Positions 1 through 40,248 of a stretch of DNA of 42,058 nt are shown here, one piece after another (position 1 is the first letter of the stretch; each line of letters opens with the position of its first letter). Source of the stretch: Atractiella rhizophila (lineage: Eukaryota); NCBI GenBank assembly GCA_021432655.1, contig MU271558.1, forward strand, positions 1-42,058, given 5' to 3'. The position numbers were made by a program, and so were the translations under genes. Under the pieces are notes generated by a model. The model worked only from the letters and a program-made list of their open reading frames with translations, searched no databases and was not told the DNA's origin.

Positions 1-95
1 CCCTAACCCTAACCCTAACCCTAACCCTAACCCTAACCCTAACCCTAACCCTAACCCTAACCCTAACCCTAACCCTAACCCTAACCCTAACCCTA
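1..95 (+). repeat. Telomeric repeat tract (CCCTAA)n, left chromosome end
   Basis: 15 perfect CCCTAA units plus a partial CCCTA from base 1, in left-telomere orientation. Confidence 0.98.
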
Positions 96-826
96 CGGCA
101 GAGTTGAGAGTGCCTCCATCTCCAGCTATGAGGTGCTCCATGAAGGTCGTCTGCTTGTTCGAGGCCAAGGTGGAGAAACCAAGACCGATCAATCCATCCT
201 CCACTTCGCTCTCCAGCTGTTCTGAAGCGATGTTTGCGAGCGAGAAGCCTTGACTGGGAATTGTAAAACCAGCTATGCTGAGGGTGTCCTGAGCCACGAA
301 ACCAGTTACCGTCGTTCCGTCACCGTACGTTATGTCCCAGGGAGTCGTGCTGCCGACAAAGCTGGAGGAGGCTGAACTGTTAAATTTGGGATGCTTCATT
401 GAATTGGAATCAGGGCCATAAACCGATAAGTCGGCTGATCCAGCTTTACATCACGAGGTTTAGCTGCGCTCCCACAATAGTTTATGAAACGAACTATCAA
501 ACTGGAGCGTGAAGCTTTGACCAGGAGTCCCCAATTCGATTTGACCAAGGTAGATTCCTACATGTTACATCAGCTCCAAGTTCTCAAACAGAGGGAAGGA
601 AGGACAAACCGTCGAGCGGAGCGCCATTTATGAACTCTTCCTGTCCGTCTGCCCGCTTTGAGAACCCCAGCCTGCGACGTTCATTGGACTCTGATGGTTT
701 GATGTGCTTGGTTAGGGAGACGACGTTGAGTCCCCTCTTCTGCCCCTTTTCACGTTGCGATGACAGGTGAGGAGGAAATGTGGCTGAAGTGCCCATGACA
801 AGGAGCAAAAGTGCCATTGTGGCCAT
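96..826 (-). pseudogene. Secreted pepsin-like (A1) aspartic protease, 3'-truncated by the telomere
   Basis: Signal peptide MATMALLLLVMGTSA and a propeptide ending KR. Splicing GT-AG introns 609-558 and 494-444 gives YLGQIELGTPGQSFTLQFDTGSADL...FNSSASSSF...ITYGDG...DGLIGLGF. The first catalytic DTGS is present. The C-terminal lobe with the second Asp and the stop codon are absent because the frame runs into TTAGGG. Confidence 0.93.
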
Positions 827-1639
827 CTAACTTGAATAATGAGACTGAGACAACAAAGGAAGTCTTGGTAGGATCCTGAAGAGAGGATTCGAGTATTTGT
901 CGAAGTGGTTGAAAAGTTAAGGGGAAGTTACGAACGGAGGGAATGAAGCTTGGAATTCGCCCAAGGGGAAGTCAAATTTATGTATGACCTTTCCGGGCTT
1001 TCTCTGTAAATAGTGGCCGCCTAGGTGGTGGGAGTTGGTCGGTTATAAAAGAGGTCAATTTGATCTTATTCTTGCTCTCAAAACTGAAGCGTAAAACCAT
1101 TCGTCCGCCTTCACAAACCCTCCTTTGCAATTTGGAACTTGAACTTGGAGTTGAGAAGCCGTCACAATTAAGAGTAGAAATAAAGTCAATTTATTGATCG
1201 AAGGGAGTGCGAAAGAATTAAAAGAATGGAGATACAACAGCAACAGGGCAACAGAAGAGGCAAACTGGTCGCGCCGACAGTGTTCGCCTTTACTCCTTTA
1301 CTTCACATTTCTTTACGCTTTACGGTACTGGTATTTTACTAGTAAAGCACCTTGCCTTCCAGTTTTACTGGTATTTCTGCGTTGTTCTTCAATAAAATAA
1401 TGAAACATTTCTTTTTGTTTCCAAGAAACTGTTATCTTTTATTTTTTTGCATAGGAGTGAATCCACCTTTCCGCAAGTATGGACAGAACGCATGGAATGA
1501 TAAGACAAGGAATCAGATGCGATATTTACCTTGTTATTGTTATTTCAGGTCAACGTCGCTCCACATTCTGGGGAATGATCGGTAGAAAACCAGGCAAACT
1601 GGTCGCCCCGTTTAAGCACTGAAGAACAACTGACATTGC

Positions 1640-1991
1640 ACTGTGGAATTTTCAGTCAGTTTTGGCGGACTGAAATTTGATCGCGCAGTGATTGACTATG
1701 GACTATTGACGGAACTGCCTGAACATTGACTGAAGTCTGTTTTCATAGAGCCTGAAGGAGTGCTGATTTCACTACTCCAAAAAGATGCAATACAATGATA
1801 GGACCCCATCTCACTTTAGCTCTCTGAGGATGAGCCAGATTTCTTTGTGCATAGCAAAGATCTGAGTAGCGATATGCTAGGATCCTTCCGCTCAAAGTGT
1901 GACCTGCTTTTTGAGGGTTGCTGCAAGCCTGCGCGATTATTCATCGTTCTCCCAAATTTCGCTATACTTATCTGCAGTGGACTGAAATTGG
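1640..1991. repeat. Degenerate inverted-repeat element (possible non-autonomous transposon relic)
   Basis: TTTCAGTC (1650-1657) pairs with GACTGAAA (1668-1675) within a longer imperfect hairpin. GACTGAAATT recurs at 1980-1989. No coding potential seen. Confidence 0.25.
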
Positions 1992-2366
1992 TTTCAAATT
2001 AGGATGAGAACAATATGACATAATGCTGCCATTTGTGAAGATCCCCTGCTGTGATGCATGATGTTTTGCAAAGAATTTAGCGCAGCAGAAGTATTCGGCT
2101 GGTAGGGTCAAGGAAGGATCATCGGAGGATGACTTTGGCCTCGATCCTGTCCCGGTGAAGAGTGGCTTGTAAGAGTAGGAAAACGAAACTTGGAAGAGCA
2201 GAGGGACGGGTGGGTCAGTTGAAGCGTTCCGTTTTCAAAGTCACCGAGTGTTAGGTCTTTGAACTGTAGCGCAGCGGTCGTCTTCCTCGTCAAAGATTTC
2301 TCGACTAGATTGCAGAAGTTTGAAAGTGTAACCAGTGTGACATTATTCACTAATAGAATAGTTCAC

Positions 2367-4521
2367 TCACTTCGAACAAGGAACTTTGCGCCGTCGGTCG
2401 TTTCTTTTCCACTTCTCATCTTGCAAGGCGCGCTCCAGTTCGCTTCGAACGTAGTCGTGAAATTGAAACAGATTCCATGCTTTCTCCTGCTCAGTGAGCT
2501 CGTTCTCCATCGATTTCACCGCCTCTGGGTCTTCACCATCCAATTCCATCGCTGCGAACGCCATCAGCATCTTTTTCAATGACTCTGTGTCTTCATCATC
2601 CAACACAGACCCTGGGGCTTCATCTTCTTTGGCTTTAGCTATACGATCGAGCGCCACTTGGAATTCGACTGCTGTGGATAGCGTGTCCAGCAGACGGATG
2701 ATGAGTCCTCGTAAGGTAGGGGGTATAACCGCAAAATTTCTCGCTTGGTTTATCAAACCAAATTTTGACACCCAGGCATCTTGGTTATTCTCTTTGCGGT
2801 CGAATGTTTTGAGGTATGACCTTCGCTCTTGTTCGGTCAGTCGAACTGGGCCACAATTCACCGTTAACCAAAGGAGCACGTAAACGAAAGATTCAATATC
2901 GTCGGCGACACAATGTTTCACCCTAGGTTTTTGTATGAGTCGAAGGGACAAGAACTGATAAGTACCCTAAATTTCCATTTAAATGAAATTATAGCAGATC
3001 GTGGTGATGTTCACACTTACGGTTCGTTCGCGCAGCCGCGCTGACACATCGTCGATGCCCTTTGCAAATTCCCAGTCTATAAGCATTCCTCGCGCTTCCC
3101 CGCCTTCGGTTCGTAACAGCAGTACATTCCCAACAGAGACATCTCGATGGAGCAAGTTAGCAAGCTGGACAGCCTGTTGGTGTGCTGCAATCCAAGTCAT
3201 TCATCGTGAAGAGAAGAACTGGAAACAGACCTGTGAAAGCATCCAACAGAACCCTCACCAGCTCCCAACTCGATCTGAAGTTGGACAGCGGTTCTCCCAC
3301 CTCGTTCAGGACAATCCTATAATGCTTCATTCTGAACCCGCCCGCTCCAATCGCTTTCCTGCAAAGGATTCTTGGTCTCCACGTCCTGATCAACGAGAAC
3401 AGTGGCGATATTTGGGATTTTTCTGTCGTGCAGATGGGCATATATGGTTCCTTCCTTCTGGTACTCCATCTTGCGCCATGTATCCTTCAGCAAGACGATT
3501 TCCTTCCTTTTGAACAAATACGCGCGGTAACATTTCGTTCCACGCCCAACCGCCAAAAAATGACTGCTTGTGAAGGGCTGGGAAATATAGAAGCTCTCCC
3601 TGCCCACCCAAACCTTGAAAAGAGAGTGTCGTCATCTACCTGGAGAAACCTCCTCGCTTCTTTTGCTGCAGAATCACCGCCAGCCGTTGTAAAGGTCAGG
3701 TCATAGCCCTCTTCGTTCGGGAGGAGCGTGAGTGTAGCGGTCGATGTAATCGGATAACGAGTTGTCAAACCTAACGTCGAAGCTACGCGACACTTTCGAT
3801 CCTGCGCGAGAGTGAACAATGAGGCGGCGCGAAGGCGCCATGGAGAGAAAAAGAGAAGACACGAGTGCGATGTTGTAATGTCTGGATAACCGTATTGTAA
3901 ACGGTAATTTGGCCTCGGATATCTCGTGCAACTTTAGAGTCCCGTTCGAAAGGAGAGCGTTTGGAGTCGAAAGCATCAAGTATTTTCTCTGTTTTGAGCT
4001 CTGCAAACATGTCGACATCTCGCATACTGTTTCCTTCCACCGCGACCCGCTTCCGCCGAATACAACACCAGGTCAGGTTTTACCGCAGTATAGTTGTAAA
4101 CAGGATGTATTGTCTTGTCGGGGAGCGCAGAAGTGTCGACCCAGTGCCAATCACGAGCGAGGTAGCGGTCTAAGCCAGTGATCTACACTACTTCTCAACG
4201 CAGCCCAATCACCTCAGGGTTTTGAACACTAACTACTTGAGAATATAGCTCGCTTTCATTGGAAACTGGTAAAGAGATTTGGATAGGGCGAGGAGGTGGT
4301 CGCGATTCCGAGTATTCCTCTGGTTTTGGTGCAGGGAGCATCTTAAGAATTTCCTCAACGGAAACCTCTTCAAACTTTCCACGCACATCGCGCTCTGCGA
4401 GTACATAGGCGTGCTCTGCATTGGAGGACAGGGAGAAAGGTGCGGTCGCGTTGTCTGAGTAGTGATGCGGCGTGCTGGGAGGCTCTAGTAACGCCTTCGA
4501 TGAAGCCTGATTCGAAGGCAT
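2367..4521 (-). pseudogene. Fungal-type protein kinase (FunK1/Pkinase_fungal), frameshifted as given
   Basis: Motifs KPDLVLY, RGQITVY...QHRTRVFS, VGRGTKCY, LLKDTWR, HYRIVL, HRDVSVGNVLL, IDWEFAK, RT|GTYQFLS and DDIESFVYVL. Three introns (4233-4183, ~3230-3186, ~3020-2968). At least five frame changes are needed in exon 2. Confidence 0.88.
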
Positions 4522-4562
4522 GATGGTGGCTATGGTGGCTGGTCGCTGGTGTTGACATTTCT

Positions 4563-4575
4563 GGTTAGGGTTAGG
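4563..4575 (+). repeat. Interstitial telomere-like seed GGTTAGGGTTAGG
   Basis: 13-nt match to the TTAGGG repeat, about 40 nt upstream of the kinase ATG. Confidence 0.5.
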
Positions 4576-5234
4576 AAGAAGACAAACAACACGCGGGTTA
4601 CTCCTAGTTAATTGGGCGAGAGTTGAATTCTGTCTTGCTAAAAGAGAAGAGGAGGCAGAATGGGATGTCTTTTTGTCTGAGAGACCTCGAGACAAGTCGA
4701 CACATCAAGAGATCATGAGCTACCGTTCAAGAGAGGGCGAAAAAGGTTTCTGAAAAAGTTTTCTCGATTTGGGTAAGGCGTAGCCTTACCTACAAGTCTC
4801 TCCTAAATCAAGCTTTAGGTCTGTTTAACAAAGTGAATCAGGGATGGGACAGATAAAGACAGATAAAGACTTACCAGACGACCAAGACCATGGAATCTTT
4901 GACGATAAAATCTGCTGTGGCAATTTTTCCATGTTTGAGGGGGGCATACATGGAGAGGAGTGACGCTTGACAATGCTCAGCCTTTCGGCTCGCGTCATGA
5001 CAAGAAGGTGCGAAGTTCATATCACTCTAAATCGAAACAGGACATTGAACGAATAATCAGGGACAGGGTAGGAATCGATAAGGGAGTCAGGAAGCGGGTG
5101 TTCACCCAACACGCCGACGAAGTGACTATCCCATCCATCCATCCATCTTGTTCAACCTATCACACCTCACAAGCTCACCTTCCTCGCCTCGTCTGTGCAC
5201 ACCGAGCCTTCCCACGCGTACTATTTAGGACACA

Positions 5235-5402
5235 ATGCGGTTAGACACATACCTACTCGGTCTTAGTATCGTCGTTGTCGTCCGGGGGGGCAAGGCCAAG
5301 CGACCCCTCGATCAATCAAGGAGCCCCGCTGCTCATCCCGCCTATTCTTCCGTAGCCAACTTTCTCAGATTTCAATGCGATCCCCTCACCTACGTCTCCT
5401 AG
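5235..5402 (+). CDS. Possible small secreted protein (or first exon of one)
   Basis: ATG ORF MRLDTYLLGLSIVVVVRGGKAKR... with a hydrophobic N-terminus followed by a dibasic KR. Downstream exons not resolved. Confidence 0.25.
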   Translation: MRLDTYLLGLSIVVVVRGGKAKRPLDQSRSPAAHPAYSSVANFLRFQCDPLTYVS

Positions 5403-6318
5403 CCCTTTCCTGTCGAGGGGCTGAAACCCTCACGATAGCCCGCCGCCTCGTTTCAGAACGAAGCGGACAGAGTCCAAGTCAATCCTGACACTGTTGCCCT
5501 TGGTTTCAGGAGCGGAAAGGAGACGGTGAAGGTAGAACAAGATGTGAAGGAGCCATGAACCGACCTGAAAGCTTCCCTGTTGGCATCAAAGAGGAGATAG
5601 CTTCCCAGGGTGGAAACTATGTCCACATCACGTCAGAAGATAGGAAAGGTGAACTCATTGCCATGTCTGATGCCCTTGAAAAACAGCGCGGAAACGTTTT
5701 GTGTGGGTCAGATGTGAGTCTCATTTCTGGCTGAGAAAGTAAGGATCCTCTATCATCCAAGAGGCTCTATCGAAAGAGGGAGACCATTTCCCTTAGTCAG
5801 AGCATGAAGGAAACCCTCTCTCTAGCCTCTCATGGAACGGCCGGATTTCTCCAACTCCCACCTCCCAAAAAAGCCCAACTCCACTCCGAATGAACCTCCA
5901 GCACTTTGCAATCCTGGAAGCCAAACCCCGGGTACAATAACACAACGGCGCCAGCTTCGTCGAGATCTCCCTGCGATGCTGCCAAGTGTAAGCTGCAGTG
6001 CTTCTTCAATGTGGGCTTTTGAATGTGGTAAAGGCTTGGATGAAAGGGACCTCTTTTCGGGTTATCCCTCGTCCTCTCACTCCTCTTCTCGCTCTCGCTC
6101 TCTGCAATGGACTCGGAGCAAGACGTCACTATTAGCGTATTAGCGTGAGTGATCCAGACGACGAGGGAGCCAATACACAATAAATGGGCATGTAGATAAT
6201 GCTATGTACGAGAAACCCTTGACTGATTGAAGGTGAAACCAACTGTCAGGGAAGGTCTAATAGAAAAGCAAATGTGAAAAGAGACACTCATGAATTGCAC
6301 CGTGGCTGGGTTATAACG

Positions 6319-30254: not shown

Positions 30255-32495
30255 TCACGTATTGGAACTCTTCAACCTCTTGCTGCTGTCTCTTTCTATC
30301 GTCACCCCTCTCCTCTTAGAACCTTGTGTCTCGCGAGAAACCGCCCCGTCCTCCCGACCCCGCCAAGTTCTGGTCTCATCCATTAGAGCTCGTCGTAGCA
30401 ATTCCCTCATAAAGGTGTGAGTAGCCATCTGACCAATCATACTATCAATCAGCTGCTTTTCTTCAGCTGCCGGGATTGCTGGGAGCCGTATGAGTCTCTG
30501 AAGATTGCGAGTTTGAGCTACCAAGTCGCCAGGGGTGACCAAACGGTAAGAAAGGTCGAGGAAGAGATCCTGGAGTACTTGGTCAAGCTCGAGAGTGTTG
30601 ACCTTGAGTGCGCCAGCACCGCTTGTTATGATTCCATTTCGGCCCGTAACTGTCGACTCAATGCTGTTCTGCATTCTGTCGAACGGAAGAAGTAAAGATC
30701 TTCGGTCTTCATCTGACAATTCGCTTTGCGCGTATGATATAACGGTCCAGATCAGGACGTAAACGAATGACTCAATATCGTCTTCAGTGTCGTGTCGGAT
30801 GGTCTGTTTTGAGTGGATTGCCCGCAAGAGTCGATGAGACATGAACTCGTAAGTGCCCTGTTCCACCATGAACTACGACATGTATTATTAAGAGAACCAA
30901 CCGTTCGCTCAAGTGAAGCAACGGGATCGCTTTTCTTCTTCGCGAACTCCCAATCGATTAAATACCCCTTCGGTTCTTCTTCAACTGGGCCAAGAATGAT
31001 GTTGCCGAATGAGACATCACGGTGCAGCATGCCGAGATTGTCCCAAGCAGCAAGTGAGCTGTAGCCCACCCATGACGCTTTAGTTATACATCCGATGAAG
31101 ACGGGAGCAAGCGCACCTTCAAAAGCGTCTGAGAATCCTTTCACGAGCTCATAACTAGACCTAAATTTATTGAGCGACCGTCCGACTTTATTCAAAACAA
31201 GTCGATAGTGGACCATCTCCCTTTTATCTTTATCGTCCGCCGATAGCTTGACACGTTGGAATTTGCCCGTTACATCACCTTCGGCAACAACCTGGAGAAT
31301 ATTTGGGACTTTATGCGCGTGTAACTCAGGGTAGACTTCGCCTTCCGAACGGTATTCGGAATGTCGCCAGGTATCTTTGAGCAAGACGAGTCGTTTCTGT
31401 TCGGGGTCGTAAGCCTCGAAACACCTTGTTCCTCGACCGACGGGTTGATTGTGACGAAAGATGAAGGGATCCGAAATATAGAACGCCTTGTTTTGTACCA
31501 TCACTTTGAAGATTGGCTTCCCCACTATAACGTTGAGCTTCGTCTTAGCCTCTTCAGCATCGTCGTCGCCCTCAAGAGGATCCTGCATCGTCGTGTCGTG
31601 TCCCCTTTCGGCATCGTTCGCGTGTGTAAAGCGCCAAAAGACTTTGCGGAGGTGTGGCGTCGCGACGTAGTCGAACAAAGGGGTCACAAGGAAGCCAGCA
31701 CGGGAGTGACAGAGAAGACGAGCCGAGTGTTGGCTAACATAGAAAGAGAAAACTCTCGTTCTTTGTTGGGAAGAAAGAATGACGCTGCTGTAAATGGTGA
31801 GTTGACCACGCGCCCCTTTCGCTGTCTGTGAGCTGCCTTCTATCACTCTGACATCCTTCTCAATCTTCTCGTCGCGAAAAGGTTCATCCTTACGCGCCTT
31901 CTTGAACTCGCCAAACGACTCCGCTTTCTTCATGACTGTACCTGTCCCCAAGCGATCACTATAGAGGACCAGATCGGGTTTGACCCCAACGACTCCGAGC
32001 ACTGGAAAGAAATCCCTGTCGGTCTTGTCGTTGGTGTTGACGAGCTTCCAGGTTTCTTTGATGAAAGGCTGCATATACTTTATCTATTAAAGTGATATAT
32101 TCGAAAAAGATAATTGGAAGAGACCAATGCACTCACAAAGGGATTGTAATGAGTGGTTTCCGGACCTGACACATCTGGCACTGGGTAGGGACTGTCGTCT
32201 GGCATGTCCTCGTCCCAGTCGCACGGCAGCATGTCAAGAAATTCTTCCACAGACACTGTAGCGTATTTTCCCTTCAAATCGCCGCAGACGAATCGTAGGC
32301 AGCCTCGTTCTCTGTCGCCGGAATGCTTTGGCCGTCATGATGGGAGCTGCTGGCTAGCCGCTTCGGAGTCTCTTTTGTCTGAGCAGATTTGGAGGCAGGG
32401 TTGGCAGAGGTACCCGCTGGAGGGGTAGAAGGGCGGGCATTAGTAGCCATTGGTTGATCAGTAACGGGAGGATTGGGAGCCATCAATGGGATCAT
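30255..32495 (-). pseudogene. Second fungal-type protein kinase (FunK1), with two apparent 1-nt deletions as given
   Basis: KPDLVLY, VGRGTRCF, LLKDTWR, HYRLVL, HRDVSFGNIIL, IDWEFAK, RT|GTYEFMS and DDIESFVYVL. Same three intron positions as the first kinase. Frame breaks near 32292 and 31054. Confidence 0.85.
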
Positions 32496-35239: not shown

Positions 35240-35383
35240 CTGGATCCACAGCGTACATGAAGATGGTGGTCAAAACGCTGTCTACAATGCAAAAAACACT
35301 ACATACCTACCTGGATCCACAGCGTACACGAAGATGGTGGTCAAAACGCTGTGGATCCAGAAGGCAAGACCCTAACCCTAACC
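35240..35383 (+). repeat. 42-bp direct repeat, 15-bp perfect hairpin and interstitial telomeric repeat
   Basis: 35240-35281 repeats at 35311-35352 with one mismatch. CTGGATCCACAGCGT (35311-35325) is the reverse complement of 35346-35360. ACCCTAACCCTAACC lies at 35369-35383. Confidence 0.9.
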
Positions 35384-38535: not shown

Positions 38536-40248
38536 ATGTTTGTAAGTGCCTCGTTTGGTGACGGGACGCGTAGTCCAATGTAATTTGACGCGTTCTGCCT
38601 GTAGGAAGCGAAACTTGAGCAGGCAGACACATTCAAGAAGCTCCTCGATGGTCTGTTGTTACCTGCTCGCTGTTTTTGGCTTATTGACGTGCATGGCAGC
38701 TATCAAAGAACTCGTCACCGACGCGAACTTTGAGTGCTCAGAGGAGGGTATTGTGAGCCTGATCCCTTCTCTATCTAAGAGCGACACGCGTCTCACGCTG
38801 TTCGGCGCAGAAACTACAAGCCATGGACAATTCCCACGTCGCACTTGTCGCTCTTGAACTGAAAACAGAGGCTTTCCACGACTCGTATCGGTGCGATCGT
38901 AACCTTAGCCTAGGCATGAACCTAGCATCTTTGGTCAAGATTGTTAAGTGCGCTGGAACCGATGATCGTATCACCCTCAAGGCGGGAGATGATGCTGACG
39001 TGCTTAACCTGGAGTTTCATAACCCGAGTAAGTCCCATTTTTTGGCTGGAAGGATGGGAAAGCGAGTCTGTGTATCTCATTCGGTTTCGACTGAGATGGC
39101 TTCACCGTGTTTTATCGTTTTATGTGGATTGCTAGTTTACAAGTACCAGGTGTTGTATTGAGCGCAAATTTCAAGACGCGTCATCCTGACACCCATGTTT
39201 TCACTCTTACACAAGAGGATTATTCAGTCTCTTGTTATTTGTTATTGCTTCGTCGCACTTTCAGCTCGTTTCTTTGTAGAAGGACATGCCGCTCATGCTG
39301 ATTGGGTAAACGCATGCAGAGAACGATCGGTGGGGCGAATACGAGCTGAAGCTTATGGATATCGACCAGGAGCACCTTGGTATCCCAGACACAAACTACG
39401 AAGCCGAGGTCGAAATGACCTCGACTGAATTTCGTCGCATAATGGCAGATCTGAAGGATATCGGCGAGTCCGTCAAGATCGAAGTCACCAAAGAAGGAAT
39501 CTCATTCGCAACCGAAGGGGATGTCGGCAAGGCCGCTGTGCATTTGAAACCTACGAGCAAGGTGAAGAAAAACGATAGCGACGATGATGACGAGGACGAG
39601 GACGAGGACGAGGAAAGCGAGGATGAGGATAAAAAGAAGGTCAAGAAGGAGAAGGGAATCAAGAAGGAGAAAGAGAAAAAAAGCCCGAAGAAAGCTAAGG
39701 ATAGCGATGAAGAGGAGGAAGATGTCAAGCCAAATACTCAACAGTCAGATGAGGAGATGGAAGACGTAGAGGAGGTCAAATCGAAGAAGAAAGTTTTGAA
39801 GAAGAGCAAGAAGGATTCTTCGGACGAAGAGGAGGGAGAGGGGAGCGATTCGGACGATGACGCACCGAAGTCGAAGAAGCGAAAGAGAAACTCAGGAGAA
39901 GCAGCCAATGGGAAGTCTAAGAAGGGAAAGGGGAAAGCTTCCAGCGCCAAGTCGAAAAAGGGCAAGAAGATTGACGACGATGGCGACAAGAGCGGTATTC
40001 AGGTCAAGATTCACTTACAGCAAGCTGTCACCTTAAACTTCTCCATCAAATACTTGCTTAACTTTACCAAAAGCACAGCTCTTGCTCCTAACGTTAGGGT
40101 TCGTATTTTATTTACCACGTTCACAAAAAAATATACTAACGAACGAGCGCAGTTGTGCCTGAACTCAGAAGTTCCTCTCATGGTCGAATACAACTTTGGA
40201 CCTGGACAGATTCGTTACTATCTCGCGCCGAAAATCTCTGACGATTAA
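38536..40248 (+). CDS. PCNA: Proliferating cell nuclear antigen with a large acidic/Lys-rich insertion
   Basis: MF|[67 protein letters not shown] and YYLAPKI. Five introns (38542-38604, ~38651-38699, 38753-38810, 39028-39319, 40099-40152). Confidence 0.98.

Follow-up and report, generated by a model that had tools for sequence, protein, structure and literature searches.

A telomere tract joined directly to a truncated aspartic protease gene at an apparent chromosome end of Atractiella rhizophila

The telomere tract, the protease gene remnant and their surroundings

The window, that is, the whole stretch of 42,058 nucleotides analyzed here (contig MU271558.1 of Atractiella rhizophila), opens with a telomere repeat tract that is directly followed by the remnant of a protease gene on the minus strand. 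The features of the tract and the remnant are given below, from the sequence end inward; the spliced contigs of relatives mentioned for the two introns come from public sequencing runs, X3 being an RNA-type run and X4 a root metatranscriptome.

1..95, minus strand: telomere tract, (TTAGGG)n on the minus strand toward the sequence end, every unit perfect
94..96, minus strand: junction codon GTA (Val); G96 mismatches the telomere unit and is gene-derived
443-96, minus strand: remnant of exon 3, coding for (T)GSADLSVYGPDS...HLIAGDGGTLNSA(V) and ending short of the second catalytic lobe
494-444, minus strand: intron 2, 51 nt, GT..AG (GTTCGT...GTAAAG), skipped in the relatives' spliced contigs (X3, X4)
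557-495, minus strand: exon 2, encoding (G)IYLGQIELGTPGQSFTLQFD(T), with the catalytic Asp of DTGS
609-558, minus strand: intron 1, 52 nt, GT..AG (GTTTGT...ATGTAG), skipped in the relatives' spliced contigs (X3, n=2; X4, n=1)
826-610, minus strand: exon 1, ATG at 826, with a hydrophobic N-terminus like a signal peptide and a region resembling a propeptide; the N-terminus is conserved in paralog P0007

Further inward, the following genes were recognized:

2367-4704, minus strand: FunK1-type kinase gene (PF17667, C-terminal match only, at 2370-2966, E 9.7e-05, below the cut-off)
15-20.6 kb: Vps10/sortilin gene
23.3-24.9 kb: DUF3533 gene
30258-32083, minus strand: FunK1-type kinase gene (PF17667, E 3e-32 for 30755-32083)
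39310-40245, plus strand: PCNA gene (PF02747, E 4e-32), an essential core gene

Since the PCNA gene lies approximately 40 kb and the Vps10/sortilin gene 15-20.6 kb from the end, the variable part of this subtelomere is short.

As resolved by Tandem Repeats Finder, window positions 1-95 consist of 15.8 copies of CCCTAA (period 6, 100% matches). When the 12-base telomere probe TTAGGGTTAGGG was run against the window with at most one mismatch allowed, 17 matches were obtained, 15 of which tiled positions 1-96; the chance expectation was 0.10 per whole window, and a count of 17 was reached in none of 100 shuffles. The plus strand reads CCCTAA from the first window base, so that the G-rich strand runs 5' to 3' outward, which is the orientation of a left end. 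A tract length of 95 bp falls within the range of fungal telomeres. Judged from the assembly alone, window base 1 looks like a true physical chromosome end.

Short telomere-like stretches were also seen in the interior of the window. The stretch CCCTAACCCTAACC at 35370-35383 amounts to 2.3 telomere units (exact over 35370-35381) and is oriented like the terminal tract; it could be the scar of an older end or a product of chance. At 4565-4576, inside or beside the region of the first FunK1-type kinase gene, the plus strand reads TTAGGGTTAGGA, with one mismatch and in the orientation opposite to that of the terminal tract.

The three exons on the minus strand form a remnant of 628 nt and 209 codons, with neither stops nor frameshifts. 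Residues 4-209 are identical to the database protein P0004 (206 aa, from a 44,622-base contig), which bears the NCBI label 'acid protease, partial [Atractiella rhizophila]'. Exon 3 matched the Pfam family PF00026 (Asp) over profile positions 22-131 of 315 with an E value of 9.1e-20, and exon 2 matched it over positions 2-20 (E 0.0029; 17.5 bits, below the cut-off of 19.9); exon 1 gave no Pfam family match. The first catalytic motif, FDTGSADL (DTGS), spans the join of exons 2 and 3. PF00026 is kept over positions 2-131 of 315, approximately 41% of the domain, and the second catalytic Asp lobe, represented by LVDSGSS in the paralogs, is absent; the window copy ends approximately 100 alignment columns before DSGSS. 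By these matches the gene is assigned to the A1 (pepsin-type) aspartic proteases, with its front part only.

In family A1, pepsin-type activity needs both lobes. Because the second lobe with its catalytic Asp is missing, the remnant cannot make an active pepsin-type enzyme and is read as a pseudogene. The initial annotation had described a 5' half with intact introns and free of stops and frameshifts, and the GT..AG introns and the 209 open codons bear this out. It had also described an intact signal peptide. The hydrophobic core of the N-terminus, MATMALLLLVMGTSA, was indeed recovered (Kyte-Doolittle 2.4-2.7 over residues 1-13), and we grade this N-terminus as signal-peptide-like only.

Across the join, the minus strand reads ...AAC TCT GCC GTA GGG TTA GGG..., letter for letter as first reported, and the coding exon does pass straight into the telomere: flawless repeats reach position 95 and the exon takes over at 96, with neither a spacer nor a subtelomeric element or degenerate repeat between them. 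The first unit at the join is G-TAGGG, with one mismatch (85-96). T95 and A94 fit a Val codon (Val or Ile in the paralogs) and the TTAGGG repeat alike. Since the paralogs read NS[AP][VI]F at that place, the GTA codon at 96-94 is probably gene-derived in part. The ambiguity of T95 and A94 means that the break falls at 96/95, 95/94 or 94/93, and that the seed comprised 0, 1 (T) or 2 (TA) bases. Therefore, of the earlier description of a direct join with a partial first unit TAGGG, the direct join was confirmed and the placement of the cut at 95/96 was not, as T95 and A94 may themselves stem from the gene. The reading frame stays open through the telomere repeats without a stop. No second copy of bases 96-6000 was present within the window.

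Longer relatives and the missing 3' half

The search of the protein collection for longer relatives returned 9 matches among 721 candidates, one of them the identical protein P0004. The same-species paralogs numbered five, four of them at 86-88% protein identity and one at 67%. Three distant homologues were found at 37-44%, two labelled as other basidiomycetes and one unlabelled. No annotated paralog was more than 88% identical to the window copy, which on these identities is classed as a distinct lineage, 86-88% identical to its nearest paralogs. The paralogs read ...HLIAGDGGTLNS[AP][VI]FSLFLERD... and then continue for approximately 200 more residues, via LVDSGSS, to about 400 aa. All five same-species paralogs and two of the distant homologues extend past the break point ...NSA(V).

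At the C-terminus of paralog P0005, a Ser/Gly-rich stretch is followed by a hydrophobic tail, which we take to resemble the GPI-anchored 'yapsin-like' class and to be a candidate GPI signal. The GPI-anchored fungal A1 proteases and the window copy are alike in the signal-peptide-like start and the DTGS motif; however, any anchor, like the C-lobe and the second catalytic Asp, is missing from the window copy.

All family members lie on short contigs (11-110 kb), and the models P0006 and P0013 are fragmentary. On its 11-kb contig, P0006 breaks off at ...LVDSGSSIVNLP, and P0013 starts at P0005-like residue 248 on a 15-kb contig; these two models may be one gene split by contig ends. In paralog P0007, the motif reads QFATGS versus QFDTGS in all others, so that the first catalytic Asp is replaced by Ala. 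The P0007 model also seems to translate through intron 1. On its sequence, P0007 may be an inactive or decaying family member.

The 3' half of the protease was absent from the window, in which tblastn of eight family proteins matched 94-826 only. When the C-terminal half of P0005 was used as the query, no orphan C-terminal model starting at the break was present among the annotated proteins. The matches of near length were P0008, P0006 and P0013 (3 among 502 candidates), and those of greater length were P0005 and P0007 (2 among 3030 candidates); all of them overlap the region of the window copy or begin far downstream. P0013 (119 aa) was considered as the missing 3' piece and rejected, as it corresponds to residues 248-366 of a P0005-like copy, with 114 of 119 residues identical. 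A metagenome scan with the family alignment A2 gave 269 pattern matches and 10 confirmed loci, with no close relative among them (best segment 36% identical; 57% over 30 residues), and it yielded no DNA that shows the ancestral codon at the break. The earlier proposal that the distal segment had been relocated thus gained no support, since neither the window nor the annotated proteins, the two places searched for the 3' half, contained one.

Public sequencing runs and the age of the truncation

Contigs of four of the ten listed public runs (X1-X4) were compared with window positions 70-3000 at 85% likeness. X1 is a DNA run and shares one sample with X2. Positions 70-103 were masked as repeat, where four loose ends were dropped, and all contig pieces start at position 104 or beyond. 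The depths quoted below are contig depths of the runs and are not copy numbers.

In X1, window positions 185-743 were matched without a difference by record 3 (depth 118), and 715-1644 by record 4 with 2 differences and 3 gaps (depth 143.5). A paralog contig, X1 record 1 (depth 122.5), extends 554 nt beyond position 104 and is 89% identical to the window, with 68 differences and 3 gaps over 640 nt. Since 185-743 is matched with no difference and at a depth close to that of one paralog, the exon sequence of the truncated copy is a genuine single sequence and not a mosaic of paralogs. The match to X1 does not count as independent support, because X1 may be the assembly's own source. X1 record 1 was also considered as the intact allele of the other haplotype; at only 89% identity this was unsupported. 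Its likeness to the window seems, from summed depths, to stop approximately 170 nt upstream of the ATG.

At position 172, all three X1 contigs carry A and the window carries G, and over 1837-2914 the X1 contigs are approximately 1% off the window. Therefore, the assembly and X1 agree imperfectly near the end. X1 and X2 contigs taken together are approximately 1-2% off over 1837-2914, and the window letters at 2417-2461 were found in no X1 contig; an X3 contig (2285-2928) matches there with no difference and 1 gap. A near-identical second copy of the 1837-2914 stretch of the kinase gene is probably present elsewhere in the genome. Many contigs were drawn to 1540-1830 and 2750-3000, and parts of the first 3 kb are therefore multi-copy. 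The half-depth of 185-1644 (118-143) relative to 1837-2914 (197-218) in X1 was considered as hemizygosity and rejected, as the deeper stretch is multi-copy and approximately 1% off and the depths are not copy numbers. The contig depth over 745-1644 was 143.5 in X1 versus 8.2 in X2, whereas that of the paralog contig was 122.5 versus 96.4; this gap could stem from library bias near a physical DNA end, from uneven coverage or from an end that varies. No own-copy contig was listed at 104-184 in X1 or at 185-743 in X2, and these are gaps in contig cover that say nothing about absence.

The spliced contigs of relatives in X3 and X4 skip 51 and 52 nt at 443/495 and 556/609, respectively, and the X4 contig extends 933 nt beyond position 104. 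The gene structure with both introns is thereby confirmed, as is the transcription of intact relatives. Relatives are plentiful in the RNA-type runs, one of which is a root sample. At 19 of the 20 positions at which the window differs from the P0005-like paralog, every X3 and X4 contig carried a non-window letter (X4 carried the window letter at 263); such letters reflect contig cover and are no measure of expression or absence.

The initial annotation had regarded the break as very recent. The 627 coding bases allow 1881 single substitutions, of which 71 (3.8%) lead to a stop codon. With stops, the start codon and eight splice bases counted, the probability that the remnant stays intact under substitutions only was 0.71, 0.50, 0.18 and 0.03 at 1%, 2%, 5% and 10% neutral divergence, respectively; with an assumed indel rate of 0.1 per substitution, it was 0.38, 0.14, 0.01 and 0.00. 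Under substitutions only, an intact remnant is likely at 2% and not rare at 5%. Therefore, its intactness excludes an ancient event and not an old one: the truncation is younger than a few percent neutral divergence, and the claim of a very recent break was not sustained.

Compared with the P0005-like paralog contig over 146-376, the window copy differs at 17 codons, 9 by synonymous changes only and 8 not. As only approximately 24% of the substitutions possible in the remnant are silent, 9 synonymous codons out of 17 exceed what neutral drift would give. In 135 shared columns, singleton residues numbered 4 in the window copy, 4 in P0008 and 3 in P0007. Signs of decay in the remnant thus appear weak. 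Trp97 of DLW is Ser in the window copy and Trp in all seven other aligned sequences, which may hint at relaxed constraint and some decay already under way.

Origin of the chromosome end

A tract in end orientation, placed on an exon whose paralogs are longer, matches the outcome of terminal truncation followed by de novo telomere addition. We therefore favor, at a probability of roughly two in three, a terminal truncation in exon 3 that was capped by de novo telomere addition. The truncation itself is judged against paralogs 86-88% identical, which serve as the reference in place of the progenitor allele. In the proposed course of events, a double-strand break, or erosion after telomere failure, would have removed the chromosome end as far as exon 3 of a subtelomeric A1 aspartic protease paralog. 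Telomerase would then have added TTAGGG repeats to the G-strand at its exposed 3' end (...AACTCTGCCG[T][A]), presumably from a seed of T or TA at most. All distal sequence would have been lost, namely the last approximately 200 codons, the second catalytic Asp and a C-terminal anchor region such as that of P0005. Left behind would be the promoter side, the signal peptide, two introns and the N-lobe, with no stop codon. The suggestion in the initial annotation that telomerase acted on a break using a few template bases agrees with the direct exon join, the paralogs longer by approximately 200 codons and the possible seed of 0-2 bases.

The alternative that survives best, unlikely as we hold it to be, is an assembly artefact, in which a chimeric or mis-joined read or an over-extended contig end was placed on a truly intact paralog. 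The evidence from run contigs starts at 104, short of the join; the family is multi-copy, lies on contigs of 11-110 kb and includes the fragment models P0006 and P0013, as expected of a region difficult to assemble; and the X1 contigs conflict with the window at 172 and 2417-2461. However, the tract has the correct orientation, sits exactly at the sequence end and is of a length usual for fungi. Moreover, a DNA run contains the exon sequence at 185-743 with a depth close to that of a single-copy paralog contig, which argues against a mosaic, and with the best annotated paralog at 88% there is no known intact twin onto which the tract could have been joined.

We give a slim chance to an interstitial tract, i.e., repeats that were inserted into the exon or became internal there, at which the assembler stopped, with the distal part of the gene on another contig. 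The short internal tracts at 35370-35381 (exact) and 4565-4576 (one mismatch) would fit with it, and telomere internalisation has been described in Pyricularia (in the available part of PMC8381367). Nevertheless, the annotated proteins contained no orphan C-terminal protease model beginning at the break.

The slimmest chance is left to an end made by recombination, in which the truncated gene and telomere were copied by break-induced replication or the repeats were added through recombination: although the multi-copy first 3 kb (summed X1 depth up to 1442 at 1638-1735 and 2382 at 2912-3000) and the family nature of both the protease and the FunK1 kinase genes would offer homology for copying, the own-copy depths of 118 (185-743) and 143.5 (715-1644) are close to the 122.5 of the paralog where a duplicated end should be deeper, and pure repeat, free of any accompanying subtelomeric sequence, reaches as far as the exon.

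Terminal truncation with de novo telomere addition, the preferred reading, has well-described counterparts. A telomere sitting on a truncated family gene at a chromosome end is the classic sign of chromosome healing. Of 24 de novo telomeres in Pyricularia oryzae, 19 arose from seeds of 1-4 nt, and a seed of 'minimally T or A' is said to suffice, according to the sections of PMC7367193 at hand. Chromosome ends are frequently truncated there and given de novo telomeres, and the junctions are often strain-private (excerpts of PMC8381367 and PMC7367193). The likeness to the end described here lies in TTAGGG placed directly on chromosome-unique sequence, in what may be a short seed and in the loss of subterminal genes (PMC7367193, in part). 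In contrast, the Pyricularia events were cloned, tracked through successive generations and found in raw reads, as far as those sections go, whereas the Atractiella end is known from one assembly; the sites named in the same portion of PMC7367193 are rDNA, MoTeR elements and the AVR-Pita region, with no protease gene among them, and Pyricularia, an ascomycete, is only distantly related.

At four chromosome ends of the Plasmodium falciparum 3D7 reference, the telomere lies within a truncated var gene, and the usual subtelomeric elements are likewise missing at these healed ends (PMC5550746, from the portion available). However, this organism belongs to another kingdom and has another repeat, and its healing was verified by SMRT reads and induced experimentally, as given in that portion of PMC5550746. 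The hotspots of Saccharomyces cerevisiae are similar in that telomerase acts on a break and the chromosome is truncated, and they differ in their dependence on TG-rich sequence (PMC10055226, in the part accessible). With respect to mechanism, the Atractiella end adds nothing beyond Pyricularia, Plasmodium and yeast and is an ordinary example. As for the genome itself, the literature naming 'Atractiella rhizophila' and 'genome' yielded no description of the assembly; an acknowledgement of 'unpublished genome data for Atractiella' stands in the accessible part of PMC13347111.

The locus nevertheless marks one true-looking chromosome end in the little-studied Atractiellomycetes and shows the use of TTAGGG there. 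It would also change the reading of the 206-residue 'acid protease, partial' entry, which on the preferred reading is a telomere-truncated pseudogene and not an incomplete annotation. If other isolates keep an intact allele, this end would document, with a date, how a plant-root endophyte lost a gene through terminal truncation.

A wider speculation, to which we allow a small chance, is that the protease family of this root endophyte as a whole is telomere-associated and that its copies are rapidly broken, capped and rearranged at chromosome ends, like the var genes of Plasmodium; the end described here may even differ among the nuclei of the sequenced culture. It is hinted at by the short contigs of the family, the two fragmentary models, the one lost catalytic Asp, the relatives in the RNA-type runs and the depth gap at 745-1644.
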